Of a stretch of 12,369 bases of DNA, positions 1 to 12,368 are shown piece after piece (position 1 is the stretch's first letter; every line of letters starts with the position of its first letter). The DNA comes from Candidatus Iainarchaeum sp. GTDB taxonomy: Archaea > Iainarchaeota > Iainarchaeia > Iainarchaeales > UBA10191. The position numbers and the translations under genes were made by a program. The notes below the pieces were generated by a model. It saw only the letters and a program-made list of their open reading frames with translations, did not search any database and was not told where the DNA came from. The stretch lies in NCBI GenBank assembly GCA_030649735.1, contig JAUSFL010000012.1:1-12369 (forward strand), written 5' to 3'.

Positions 1-58
1 ACCAGGCCTTGCAGGGAATGCAGTAAGGCAAATAGTCAAAGTCGCCCATGTTTTTCAT
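1..58 (-). CDS. N-terminal fragment of a putative Cys-cluster protein (YkgJ / CxxCxxCC-like), truncated by the window edge
   Basis: Own translation of the minus strand from ATG at 58 (alternative ATG at 49) gives MKNMGDFDYLPYCIPCKAW, with the next codon starting with T. CxxCxAx(C) near the N-terminus resembles YkgJ-family starts. Only 19 codons are visible. Confidence 0.4.
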   Translation of the reverse strand, partial: MKNMGDFDYLPYCIPCKAW

Positions 59-96: not shown

Positions 97-630
97 TTAG
101 CTTTCCCCGCGCTGCTTCTCACTTTCAATATACTCGTCAACTAAAGAAATAAGTTTTGCTATTTCCCCAAAAGCAAACTCGTCTCGCTCTTCAGCAACCA
201 AGCACTGGGTAATATAAGGAGAGCCAAAATCAAAGCCATAAAGAGTGTAGCAGCCGCGAAAGCGGCCGGCGCTTCCATATATTTCACTAACGCTAACAAG
301 ATGCTCTTTCAAGCGCTTAATAAGAGATTCTCGCTCAGAGGGCCCTGAACTTTCTATTTCTTTAATTTCTTCAGCCAGCACCTCTTTTTGCTTAACCATG
401 CTGCGAATTTTATCAGCGTTATTTCTCAAGAAATCTTGCACCCCATCAAAGATTTTCTTTGTAGTGGAAGCATCTGCAGAGAATTCTTTTCTCTCACGCC
501 TTCCACTTCCCCCAGAGCCAGTGGAAACCGTGCGAGCCTCGCTAAAACTGCCATCAGGAAGGAAAACAAATGAAGTGCCAGAGCCTTCGCCGCTCCACGC
601 AGAATACCTGATGCCCAATTCTGATACCAT
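97..630 (-). CDS. Hypothetical protein (177 aa); signal-less paralogue of the repeated domain of the upstream lipoprotein, with a charged helical insertion
   Basis: ORF track. GAGGGA SD-like motif about 6 nt before the ATG, which lies 14 nt after the stop of the upstream gene. By-eye alignment to lipoprotein aa 192-309 (IRYS..GEGSG..LPDG / IEYS..GFEGGG..YPNG; YTLYGF / YSLIGF; AFGEIAK / GFAEFDK). Confidence 0.8.
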   Translation of the reverse strand: MVSELGIRYSAWSGEGSGTSFVFLPDGSFSEARTVSTGSGGSGRRERKEFSADASTTKKIFDGVQDFLRNNADKIRSMVKQKEVLAEEIKEIESSGPSERESLIKRLKEHLVSVSEIYGSAGRFRGCYTLYGFDFGSPYITQCLVAEERDEFAFGEIAKLISLVDEYIESEKQRGES

Positions 631-644
631 TACATTTCCCTCAT

Positions 645-2846
645 TTAATCAAACACGCTGAAGCCGTGCTCTGAATACGCTGTTTCATTGAATTTGGCTA
701 CTGTTTGGAAGAAATAATCATACAGGAATTTTGCAGGCTGGCCTTTCTTGAAAACCAATGCATGGCTCATGCTTGAAGGCTGCTTGTCATTTCCGACTGT
801 AAAGTCAAGCCATGCTTGGCTTCCGTCAGGCAAGTCATAAACCACAATGTAATTCGGGCTTGCTACTTTCCAGTCAGGAGCTCCCCAAAGAACGTCAACT
901 TCATTAAACATTACATAATCTGCAGAAGTCTGGGTTCCTTTAGGCTTTGAGGCAATCAATTCCTCAAGCTGGGAAACTTTTTTCACGCCGCCCATGTCCA
1001 CATACAACGGGGCTTCAGGAACTGTGCCTTTAGGGTAAGGCTCTAAAACAACCTCGATTTTTGAGATTTTGAAATATGATTCTTCATGCGCTGGAGTAGT
1101 GCTTGATCCAATGCTTCTTTCAGCGGCAGTCAATTTCACGACTTCTCCAGTGATTTCAACAGGCAGTGTTTGGAAGAATTGCTCCAAGAAAAAGTTTTGG
1201 TTTTGCATTTCTGAAGGCTTTACTTCAACAACGCCAAAAGCGTCTCCTGCATTGTCCTGAACCCAAACAACGATTGTGTTCTCTTGCTTGAAAGGCAGGC
1301 TTTCTACAGAAGGCATTGGCTTCCAGTAAAGCGATAAATCGTGCTTGTAAAAGTCCTGCAATACTGCCTTTATCTTGAATTTTTCTCCAATGCTTTCCTT
1401 CAACTGCTTTATTGAAGGCTGGATTTCAAAAAGGCTTGAGAATGCAGGCACTTGCTTTAAGACAGCCTCTGCCTTTTTTGAGTCTAATTTTACGCTTTCT
1501 TGGGAGAAGAAAGAATTTGAATAATGCCCGCTGCTTTCAAACCTGTAGGCAGTCACTGTCTCAAGGCCGTGGTCGACATTGTTGAAGCTTTCTACAATTC
1601 CATTATTGTCTGCAATTGCCTGCAATTGAGTGAAAATTTTCTGCACTTGGGCTTCAGAAAGGCCTGCCACTTGCGCGTTAGGATAAAGCTCCTTGATTTT
1701 GTCCTTAAAAGAGTCGATTCCTGAAAACTCAAAATACTCCAAGTCATTAATGCTTGCGTAAGATTCATTAGGCACTGGAATCAAGACAGCCAGTCCAGAA
1801 ACGTGCAAAAGCCCAACATACTCTTTGACTGAAGGGTCAGTGCTTTTCACATTAAAGCTCAAGCGGTTAATCAAGAAGGGAGAACGGTGGTAATTCACTT
1901 CGCCAAATTTATTGGCTGTTGCTTTAGAAAGCATTGACTGGAATGACTTGTCAAATTCTGCAAACCCGGGGTCTTTTTCTGAAAGCGAAGCAATGCCATT
2001 CTTTGCGCCTGGAAAGCCAATCAAACTATAGCTTTTCACATATCTTTCAAGCCCGACTCCTGAAGAATCCGCAAGCCCTGAATCTTTTGAGGCCTTTTCA
2101 GCAGCTTTAAATAATTCATTGGCTGTTTTGCCATCAACTTGGTAATAATAATCTTCAATCCATATTCCGGCGCCTGGAGAAATCCTCAAATGATTTACAA
2201 GCAAGCCATTAGGGTAAAGCGTTAGGGTTGCTCCGCCGCCTTCAAAGCCGTGAACTTCAGAATACTCAATTCTTTTCTCTTGATTTTCCTCATCAACTGA
2301 AATTGGAAATTCTCCAATCTTTGCCTGATTGACTGCCTTAGCCAATTCAACAAATGCCGGGTTTGTTGAAACTTCCAATTGATTTGCTTCCTCGCCGCCA
2401 ATGTTTTTTTCCGCCGCGCTCAAGTAAATGTTTTCTTTGGAAAAGCCATACAATGCAATGATTGCGTTCTTTTGCCTCGCCTCTGCCTGAATACCTGACG
2501 GCTTTGCGCCAGGCCTGTAAGAAGAAGCTGTTTTTTTAACAGCGGCAAAAAAAGCGTCTGCCGCTTTCTTTTCCAATCTTCCATAAAAAGTTTCGACAGT
2601 CGGCCCGTACTTTTCAAAACGTTTTTCCTTAACCCAAGAGCCGTCAGAGTTTATAGTAATCAATTGCCTTACATTCACTGTTTGGGCAAGCTCTTTGCTC
2701 TGCTCGTCAAATTCTGAATAGTAAACTATTGTAGCATTCTTGTCAACCATTGAAAAACCACCATTTTCAGTTCCATTGTTTTCTGCAACACAGCCTGAAA
2801 AAGCCAATGCTGCCAATAAAATTGCCGTTATTGCAAACAAGCGCAT
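645..2846 (-). CDS. Large multidomain surface lipoprotein (733 aa): three internal repeats, a putative OB-fold and a putative BLIP/SmpA-like C-terminal domain
   Basis: MRLFAITAILLAALAFSG|C is a signal peptide with lipobox (Cys19 at 2790-2792). N-glycosylation sequons NGT, NAT, NES and NET are present. TATA-like TTTTTAAA lies 23-30 nt upstream. Domain calls are by eye. Confidence 0.85.
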   Translation of the reverse strand: MRLFAITAILLAALAFSGCVAENNGTENGGFSMVDKNATIVYYSEFDEQSKELAQTVNVRQLITINSDGSWVKEKRFEKYGPTVETFYGRLEKKAADAFFAAVKKTASSYRPGAKPSGIQAEARQKNAIIALYGFSKENIYLSAAEKNIGGEEANQLEVSTNPAFVELAKAVNQAKIGEFPISVDEENQEKRIEYSEVHGFEGGGATLTLYPNGLLVNHLRISPGAGIWIEDYYYQVDGKTANELFKAAEKASKDSGLADSSGVGLERYVKSYSLIGFPGAKNGIASLSEKDPGFAEFDKSFQSMLSKATANKFGEVNYHRSPFLINRLSFNVKSTDPSVKEYVGLLHVSGLAVLIPVPNESYASINDLEYFEFSGIDSFKDKIKELYPNAQVAGLSEAQVQKIFTQLQAIADNNGIVESFNNVDHGLETVTAYRFESSGHYSNSFFSQESVKLDSKKAEAVLKQVPAFSSLFEIQPSIKQLKESIGEKFKIKAVLQDFYKHDLSLYWKPMPSVESLPFKQENTIVVWVQDNAGDAFGVVEVKPSEMQNQNFFLEQFFQTLPVEITGEVVKLTAAERSIGSSTTPAHEESYFKISKIEVVLEPYPKGTVPEAPLYVDMGGVKKVSQLEELIASKPKGTQTSADYVMFNEVDVLWGAPDWKVASPNYIVVYDLPDGSQAWLDFTVGNDKQPSSMSHALVFKKGQPAKFLYDYFFQTVAKFNETAYSEHGFSVFD

Positions 2847-2868: not shown

Positions 2869-2876
2869 TTTAAAAA
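2869..2876 (-). promoter_or_regulatory. Putative archaeal TATA box for the lipoprotein gene (leaderless)
   Basis: TTTTTAAA on the minus strand at -30..-23 from ATG 2846. No SD motif before the ATG. Confidence 0.55.
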
Positions 2877-2888
2877 GAATGCTGTTTT

Positions 2889-3176
2889 TCAAAGGTGGTA
2901 ATGGAAGGATTTGAAAAAATCCGCTGTAACTCCAGCGTCAAGCCAAGCGTGCGCGTAAGAAACAGCAGCCAAGGCGCGGGCCTTGTCGCCTTGAGCTTCA
3001 AAGTACAGCGAATCTTCAAAATAGCATTTTGCATTCTGCAAAAACTCTTGCGCAATCTTGCGGTTTTTTGCGGAAATCTTTTGCGCAAATTCCAATTCTG
3101 AAATGACTTTTAAAGTTACTTTGCGGTAGCGAGAAAGCTTTTCTTCAATGCCTTCAATCTTTGGCTTTTTTTTCAC
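2889..3176 (-). CDS. DUF357 domain protein
   Basis: Signature AKCYFEDSLYFEAQGDKARALAAVSYAHAWLDAG. The GTG start overlaps the upstream TGA (GTGA). DUF357 is commonly next to dph5 in archaea. Confidence 0.9.
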   Translation of the reverse strand: MKKKPKIEGIEEKLSRYRKVTLKVISELEFAQKISAKNRKIAQEFLQNAKCYFEDSLYFEAQGDKARALAAVSYAHAWLDAGVTADFFKSFHYHL

Positions 3177-11765: not shown

Positions 11766-12368
11766 TCAGCAATCCTGCCCAAAATGCCCAGCAATCTTTT
11801 GCAGGTCTTGAATGTTCACGCCATCATTTCCCAAAACATCAGCAGCATCGCCTGCAGGATTTCCCAAACGCAAAGAAACAAAAACCAAGTCAAACAAATC
11901 CACTTTACTATCGCTTGTCAAGTCAAGGCAGGTTGGAGGCGGAGTATCTCCAGCCATCATTGCCTGAATTTCTTGCTGGGATAAAGCACTGTCATAAACC
12001 CTGACATCATCAACCAAACCATTCAATGGAGCGCCAGTACTTTGGCTATAATTCGCAATCCTCAAAAGAGCCTTTGGAGTAAATCCTGCAGATCCATTAA
12101 TCTGGCCAGACTGCAAAACACCATCCAAGTAATACTTAATATTGACAGTATTGCCCGAAACAGTGTAAGCAAAAGCAACATGATGCCAAGAGTCCAGCGA
12201 AATCAAGCTGCCAGTCAAATCACCATAAACAGCAACCCCAGAACCATTAGTATAACCAGCCCTCCATTGCGTTCCATTAGACCTCAAACCAAAATAATCC
12301 CCAACCTCATCGCCAAACAACATGTTATAACTGCCAGTCTTGTAAGACGCCAATTTAATCCAAGCAGC
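11766..12368 (-). CDS. C-terminal part of an extracellular protein: LamG-like (concanavalin A-like) domain, Pro/Thr linker and dockerin type I-like domain; 5' end outside the window
   Basis: The frame stays open past the ORF-track TTG at 12353 (AAWIKL), matching LamG 'xAWIK'. Also WHHVAFAY, YLDG and NGLVDDVRVYDSALSQQEI. Duplicated calcium-binding repeats DLTSDSKVDLFDL and DVLGNDGVNIQDL. Confidence 0.88.
   Translation of the reverse strand, partial: AAWIKLASYKTGSYNMLFGDEVGDYFGLRSNGTQWRAGYTNGSGVAVYGDLTGSLISLDSWHHVAFAYTVSGNTVNIKYYLDGVLQSGQINGSAGFTPKALLRIANYSQSTGAPLNGLVDDVRVYDSALSQQEIQAMMAGDTPPPTCLDLTSDSKVDLFDLVFVSLRLGNPAGDAADVLGNDGVNIQDLQKIAGHFGQDC

Follow-up and report, generated by a model that had tools for sequence, protein, structure and literature searches.

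A lineage-specific domain with a predicted Mago nashi-like fold in a lipobox protein and a small, strain-variable neighbour from Candidatus Iainarchaeum

Mago nashi/Magoh (PF02792; PDB 1hl6, 1p27, 2hyi and 3ex7) is a core subunit of the eukaryotic exon junction complex, in which it forms an obligate heterodimer with the RRM protein Y14. DUF6438 (PF20033) comprises small uncharacterised bacterial proteins. Polymorphic toxin-immunity cassettes, such as CdiA-CT/CdiI, consist of a large surface protein with a variable C-terminus followed by a small immunity open reading frame (ORF). Here we compare these systems with two adjacent genes of Candidatus Iainarchaeum sp. that lie in a 12,369-b stretch of DNA, the window, which is the whole of contig C17 of assembly GCA_030649735.1 (1.28 Mb, 51 contigs, 92.7% complete). 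These are lip, which encodes a 733-aa lipobox protein (Lip), and sm, a 177-aa ORF (product Sm); C22, C30, C37 and C46 denote other contigs of the same assembly. The stretch is held by one public run, a groundwater metagenome, and runs X2 and X3 hold next to nothing of it; no RNA run was listed for it. Our analysis indicates that the two proteins probably belong to a lineage-specific family of binding domains, in which Lip would be a variable surface binder and Sm an accessory paralogue encoded on a strain-variable recombination patch.

The N-terminus of Lip, MRLFAITAILLAALAFSGC, carries Arg2, a hydrophobic run (Kyte-Doolittle 2.49 over residues 3-17) and FSGC at residues 16-19, and so combines a positive N-terminus, a hydrophobic core and a Cys within the first ~25 residues; the same simple pattern occurs in 27 of the 7221 ORFs of the genome. 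These features suggest that Lip is a lipid-anchored protein, presumably displayed at the cell surface. A self-BLAST of Lip returned no internal repeat at E ≤ 10, and detection of its repeats needed Smith-Waterman alignment with shuffles together with profiles. Residues 39-176 of repeat 1 align to residues 192-309 of repeat 2 with a z-score of 5.8, and none of 500 shuffles equalled the score; the hidden Markov model (HMM) domain score of repeat 1 was 1.4e-38, but repeat 1 belonged to the training set. The segment that follows gave pairwise Smith-Waterman z-scores of 0.5-1.0, which are not significant, a weak hhalign match to the repeat 1/2 profile (E 0.005, probability 7%) and no structural match among the PDB matches listed. 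As this module is weak both pairwise and by profile, the three copies proposed in the initial annotation of this DNA, which was made from the letters alone, become two sure copies and one possible copy. Lip, its four parts and Sm matched no Pfam family at E ≤ 10, full-length Lip had no meaningful match in NCBIfam, PADLOC or PHROGs, and a search of the PDB by sequence found no match. Within the C-terminal region, the strings FFLEQFFQT (~548-560) and FLYDYFFQT (~707-719) each follow IVV-type strands, but a duplication is not significant (z 1.26; 112 of 1000 shuffles reach the score).

Relatives of Lip define which part of it belongs to the family. A phmmer search of 1.84e9 representative proteins with Lip gave two matches, P0003 and P0004 (E 8e-4). 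P0003, a fragment, derives from C22 of the same assembly and is 75% identical to Lip 588-733; P0004 is a 444-aa protein in a groundwater Candidatus Omnitrophota metagenome-assembled genome. A further paralogue, on C30, was found in a tblastn search of the genome itself; it is an open frame of 439 codons that shares 24% identity with Lip 37-355. As P0004, the C30 protein and Lip 1-480 run colinear for ~440 residues, we take the three N-terminal modules to be the family unit and Lip 481-733 to be an extra region. The three-module C30 paralogue (C30:19394-20710, minus strand) lacks a signal peptide, and its reading starts at a TTG that immediately follows an in-frame TGA; it may be either a cytoplasmic form or a copy in decay.

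The initial annotation had further described sm as a co-oriented gene 14 nt from lip whose product lacks a signal peptide and lipobox and is a copy of the lipoprotein repeat, and in each of these respects it was borne out. Sm has a Kyte-Doolittle maximum of 0.96 with no hydrophobic stretch, and no lipobox pattern. By direct comparison, Sm matched Lip with a BLASTP E of 0.014 and repeat 2 with a Smith-Waterman z-score of 3.3 (3 of 500 shuffles reach the score; P ~0.008 before correction for four comparisons), so that the pairwise evidence is suggestive and no more. Profiles were more informative. An HMM of 118 positions, built from repeats 1 and 2 of Lip, P0004 and the C30 protein, was searched against the genome in six frames, taking in all 7221 ORFs of 60 aa or longer. 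Its match to Sm (15.9 bits, E 0.0058) runs over HMM positions 8-114 and opens one insertion of ~50 residues; none of 2000 shuffled sequences reached this score (best 10.3 bits), and the reversed sequence scored 3.4 bits. In a leave-one-out test with an 8-sequence HMM from which it was withheld, Sm rose to 20.2 bits (E 2.5e-4) and was the top non-training match among the 7221 ORFs, with the next at E 0.095. The other single-domain members also came out on top when withheld in turn (C46 protein, E 4.8e-6; C37 protein, E 1.4e-4), with noise from E 0.095. When the Sm, C46 and C37 proteins together were compared with the six repeats by hhalign, the match reached a probability of 93% (E 3.6e-7, 121 columns). 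Identity between Sm and its paralogues is only ~20%, yet structural motifs in both halves of the domain are kept.

We then compared predicted structures. The domain comprises ~125 aa in the order β4-α-β2-α, and the predicted order of secondary-structure elements is equal in repeats 1 and 2. In the AlphaFold 2 (AF2) model, repeat 1 consists of strands at residues 39-50, 55-66, 70-77 and 83-90, a helix at 93-108, strands at 125-133 and 140-147, and a helix at 163-174. The model of Lip 1-480, from a 3-sequence alignment, had a predicted local distance difference test score (pLDDT) of 59 and a predicted template-modelling score of 0.61. The model of Sm, from a 7-sequence alignment, had a pLDDT of 64 and showed the same order with two long helices (72-94 and 97-114) after helix 1. 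Foldseek searches of the PDB returned Mago nashi/Magoh chains with a probability of 1.00 for the Lip model and of 0.90-0.99 for the Sm model (E 0.1-0.4, 51-66 columns), and the best whole-domain PDB chain was identical for Sm and repeat 2. An ESM Atlas single-sequence model of Sm (pLDDT 0.52), which is independent of our alignments, aligned to a Mago_nashi cluster (template-modelling score, TM, 0.56/0.60). The modelled domain has two layers, a flat antiparallel sheet of six strands and helices that back it on one side, as in the Mago_nashi fold, and is predicted to fold like Mago nashi. Support for a domain shared between Sm and the repeats is moderate by sequence and stronger by fold.

Likeness to Mago nashi stops at this level. 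PF02792 (cut-off 27 bits) gave no match at E ≤ 10 in the six-frame translation of the whole genome, sequence identity to Mago in whole-domain structural alignments was 9-15%, and the root-mean-square deviation was high, at 4.1-4.5 Å. As the fold match comes without sequence membership, the resemblance is one of fold only and gives no evidence of common descent. Here the domain occurs in tandem copies on an archaeal lipoprotein, and a Y14/exon junction context is unlikely. The comparison with DUF6438 was similar in outcome: in the ESM Atlas model of Lip, residues 190-321 align to a DUF6438 cluster (TM 0.56) and residues 30-181 to an archaeal cluster of which 13% of members carry DUF6438, both matches being below the threshold for naming, and PF20033 (cut-off 30 bits) gave no match at E ≤ 10 in the genome or in the Lip and Sm proteins. 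The literature searched contained no paper mentioning DUF6438, and no paper on a prokaryotic Mago-like domain was found in it, the matches listed all concerning eukaryotic genes, mostly from plants.

In its own genome the family comprises five genes: lip, the lipobox-like C37 gene, the signal-less sm, the single-domain C46 gene and the three-module C30 gene; outside it we found P0004. The C46 member (C46:22140-22739, plus strand) is a signal-less protein of 190-199 aa, depending on the start codon, with an E of 0.0034 against the 6-repeat HMM. The C37 member (C37:27144-27677, plus strand; 6-repeat HMM E 0.11) has one domain and a lipobox-like N-terminus (ISAGC) in 170-178 aa, again depending on the start codon; P0006, from a different public sample, is its close orthologue. 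Sm and Lip each found nothing but themselves in word-seeded searches of 5.8e9 proteins, and with a 7-sequence alignment the same search returned Sm, the C37 protein and P0006. Among 40 related genomes, the best outside match of Sm was partial (E 0.022), Lip had none, and nothing credible emerged; across the class (215 genomes, this one counted), four partial matches turned up outside this genome (E 1e-3 to 6e-3, 46-78 of 128 positions), which we judged to be noise. Metagenome contigs searched with P0004 and genome contigs searched with an alignment held no related locus. The domain family is new, being absent from Pfam and the other libraries searched, and is very small, fast-evolving, paralogous and lineage-specific. 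The residues kept across it, an F in helix 1, G-F after strand 5 and P-x-F at helix 2, are hydrophobic or structural, and no catalytic-type residue is conserved; since the kept residues are structural and none is catalytic, we infer a binding or scaffold module rather than an enzyme.

Contig C22 carries an alternative haplotype of the locus. Nucleotides 1-115 of C22 are identical to window positions 1087-973, inside lip, after which identity falls to ~70-80% up to the stop codon; ~15 nt further on begins a gene with the sequence MKNMGDFDYLPYCIPCKAW (CxxCxxCC), whose first codons are identical to window positions 57-1, and sm is absent. The indel between C17 and C22 spans the spacer and the whole sm ORF, with short similar strings at its bounds. 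Across the 104 diverged codons, synonymous divergence (dS) is 1.35 and non-synonymous divergence (dN) 0.22, giving a dN/dS of 0.17 at about 63% identity, against a dS of 0.04 in the preceding 40 codons. These values suggest that the two Lip C-termini are old, functional alleles; with identical sequence on either side, this is the pattern that import by homologous recombination would leave. No other contig of the assembly holds the upstream part of lip, and it is therefore simplest to take this part as common to the two paths. In the groundwater run, the pieces of Logan contigs break at 973-1002, which is the branch point. The piece that extends upstream has a contig depth of 16, and those at 535-1002 and 144-392 have depths of 7.4 and 3.6; these values fit a haplotype that carries sm in about half of the population at most. 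C17 ends because of an assembly bubble: its sequence and that of C22 overlap to either side of the variable patch, so C22 (71 kb) continues C17. The CxxCxxCC gene, cut by the end of C17, continues at C22:450-950, with 67 of 69 positions agreeing with C22:442-510 and two 1-nt gaps in the spacer; its C22 copy is an ordinary family protein (PF03692, E 2.8e-7) followed by a DAC-domain gene.

The association of lip with sm is not conserved. On C22, lip is followed directly by the CxxCxxCC gene; the C30 paralogue has no co-oriented small partner, its downstream neighbour being on the opposite strand; and the P0004 gene has its 3' end on a 2.2-kb contig and is followed by a convergent helicase gene. 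No credible relative of lip or sm was present in the 40 related genomes or in 214 other genomes of the class, and weak relatives of the CxxCxxCC gene in two related genomes adjoin unrelated genes, with no lip-like gene upstream, so that a survey of neighbourhoods that included this downstream Cys-cluster gene found no recurring lip-sm pair. As pairing is not conserved, the proposal in the initial annotation that lip and sm form a two-gene inhibitor/immunity or ligand-binding module is not supported. Its picture of one fold placed outside the cell in three lipid-anchored copies and inside it in a single copy holds in that a multi-copy lipobox form and a signal-less single-copy form both exist, but not as to the third copy, which is weak, nor as to an inside/outside system.

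Taken together, we favour a model in which the N-terminal ~440 residues of Lip would present two, possibly three, copies of the domain on a lipid-anchored surface protein, the distal end of which would be exchanged between strains by recombination. In this model sm is a separate gene, probably co-transcribed with lip, and its product an accessory cytoplasmic paralogue that travels with one lip allele and may be dispensable. Several observations weigh against this model. Compared on its own by hhalign, Sm matched the six repeats with a probability of 16% and a 4-repeat profile with 2.3% over only 34 columns; a profile built without the Lip repeats gave Sm an E of 0.99, and Sm was not among the matches at E ≤ 0.01 when the class was searched with a profile. 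The alignment behind the AF2 model of Sm contained the repeats, so the model is not independent, and its C-terminal third has a pLDDT below 50. At 0.253, the codon score of sm falls short of the in-frame mean (0.344); it ranks at the 15th percentile of real in-frame windows and is surpassed by 14% of off-frame windows. Logan gives one depth figure per contig, which is no proof of haplotype frequencies, and a collapsed two-locus duplication would look similar. Finally, a lipoprotein gene that encodes a transglutaminase core precedes the signal-less C46 member by 76-100 nt, a layout that could hint at a real lipoprotein-partner rule. The lipoprotein at the C46 locus is Cys-rich, 466 aa long (PF01841, E 2e-5) and likewise encoded on the plus strand, and the C46 member is followed by a small Cys-rich exported protein.

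Some of these points would also fit a different status for sm, namely that of a dispensable relic or non-expressed ORF: a partial duplicate of a family member, old and without function, whose frame is open on one haplotype by chance. Its presence on one of two haplotypes, its lack of any match but itself among the 5.8e9 proteins, its mediocre codon score and the depth of its arm, the lowest among the contigs in the holder run, are all as such a relic would have them. Nevertheless, we consider a relic unlikely, as the frame is open over 177 codons that encode exactly one complete domain, sm starts at an ATG of its own behind a GAGGG, none of the other five frames reaches its codon score, and the motifs of both domain halves persist at such low identity to the paralogues; on the first three of these grounds a decayed fragment of a second lipoprotein, which the initial annotation had held out as an alternative, is not favoured either.

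Likeness to polymorphic toxin-immunity cassettes raises the alternative that the variable C-terminal ~105 residues of Lip and a cytoplasmic Sm, as binder, chaperone or immunity-like partner, form a functional cassette that is exchanged as a unit. As in those cassettes, the C-terminal ~100 residues of Lip switch abruptly from identical to diverged and a small signal-less ORF follows closely; the allelic patch, set between identical flanks, is exactly the 3' end of lip plus sm, the 14-nt spacer with GAGGG suggests translational coupling, and at C46 a signal-less paralogue also directly follows a lipoprotein gene. Unlike in those cassettes, the C-terminal alleles of Lip are homologous and under purifying selection, the C22 allele has no immunity-type gene or other partner downstream, as is also the case for the C30 and P0004 loci, and no toxin domain, delivery domain, demarcation motif, enzyme or other family was found by Pfam or by NCBIfam, PADLOC and PHROGs. 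Moreover, in contrast to immunity proteins, Sm resembles the N-terminal repeats of its neighbour rather than the variable C-terminus. We therefore regard a functional cassette as distinctly unlikely. A bolder version, in which a DPANN archaeon swaps a surface recognition or effector tip in a strain-specific manner together with a dedicated intracellular chaperone, immunity-like binder or sensor, with the same rule operating at C46, strikes us as quite improbable; if true, episymbiotic archaea would have a polymorphic surface-partner system whose building block is a prokaryotic Mago-like fold not described before. That Sm is unrelated to the family and resembles the Lip repeats by chance or convergence would agree with its marginal pairwise statistics, its low hhalign probabilities when taken alone and its failure against the profile lacking the Lip repeats, but is very improbable given that no shuffle reached its HMM score, that this score climbed once independent family members were added, that the alignment is colinear over both domain halves across the 45-residue insertion, that one PDB chain is the best whole-domain match for both Sm and repeat 2, and that the independent ESM Atlas model gives the same fold.

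The features of the locus are collected in Table 1. In the spacer between lip and sm, GAGGG may serve as a ribosome-binding site, and TTTTTAAA upstream of lip is a putative promoter element of that gene. The rest of the contig (2889-11751) is housekeeping and without link to lip or sm. Genes named by Pfam in this part encode DUF357, HAD hydrolase, TP_methylase family, DUF63, DUF1653 and Trm5/Tyw2 proteins, and those named by eye from their translations are adenylate kinase, purK, purE, purC and guaA; the TP_methylase-family protein is, at a guess, diphthine synthase. At the far end of the window, an ORF on the minus strand (11766-12368), open at its 5' end, carries a Laminin_G_3 domain (E 6.5e-21), and its C-terminal tail has by eye a Cys-bracketed, dockerin-like look (C..DLTSDSKVDLFDL..DVLGNDGVNIQDL..C).

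Table 1. Coordinates of features at the lip-sm locus (window positions).
Feature	Coordinates	Strand	Description	Basis
CxxCxxCC gene	1..57	-	first 19 codons, cut by contig end; 39-nt spacer after sm	PF03692
sm	97..630	-	177 aa, signal-less single-domain protein; in C17 haplotype, not in C22 haplotype	
Helical hairpin insertion in Sm	286..420	-	residues ~71-115, ~45 aa, between helix 1 and strand 5	HMM alignment and AF2 helices 72-94 and 97-114 (pLDDT 75-85)
Spacer	631..644	-	14 nt, GAGGG at 638-642, ~8 nt before sm ATG	sequence read directly
lip	645..2846	-	733 aa, stop codon 645-647	ORF list
Allelic patch	648..972	-	last ~105 lip codons, differing from C22 allele	
Lip C-terminal region	648..1406	-	residues 481-733, orphan; sole relative is C22 allele	no family match (Pfam)
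Module 3	1407..1886	-	residues 321-480, possible degenerate third copy with extra helices	colinear with P0004 and C30 paralogue
Repeat 2	1887..2285	-	residues 188-320, best-modelled copy	
Repeat 1	2289..2738	-	residues 37-186	Smith-Waterman against repeat 2, z 5.8
Signal peptide and lipobox	2790..2846	-	residues 1-19, MRLFAITAILLAALAFSGC, Cys19	sequence pattern only
TATA-box-like element	2869..2876	-	TTTTTAAA, centre ~26 nt before lip ATG	sequence read
DUF357 gene	2889-3176	-	before lip in minus-strand order of the left end	Pfam

These results are of descriptive value: they define a new family, assign it a fold and correct the reading of the locus, which is not a fixed two-gene system. The fold itself is known, and allelic replacement is a familiar population process. 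The domain family is very narrow, has a recognisable Mago-like fold and occurs in putatively exported and cytoplasmic forms. At this locus, the tip of a surface protein appears to have undergone allelic replacement within a population, a clean example in which a whole small gene is gained or lost. For DPANN archaea, contact with other cells is a necessity, and the majority of their surface proteins belong to no known family. If the domain is a binding module, Lip would be a candidate host-contact or substrate-contact protein.

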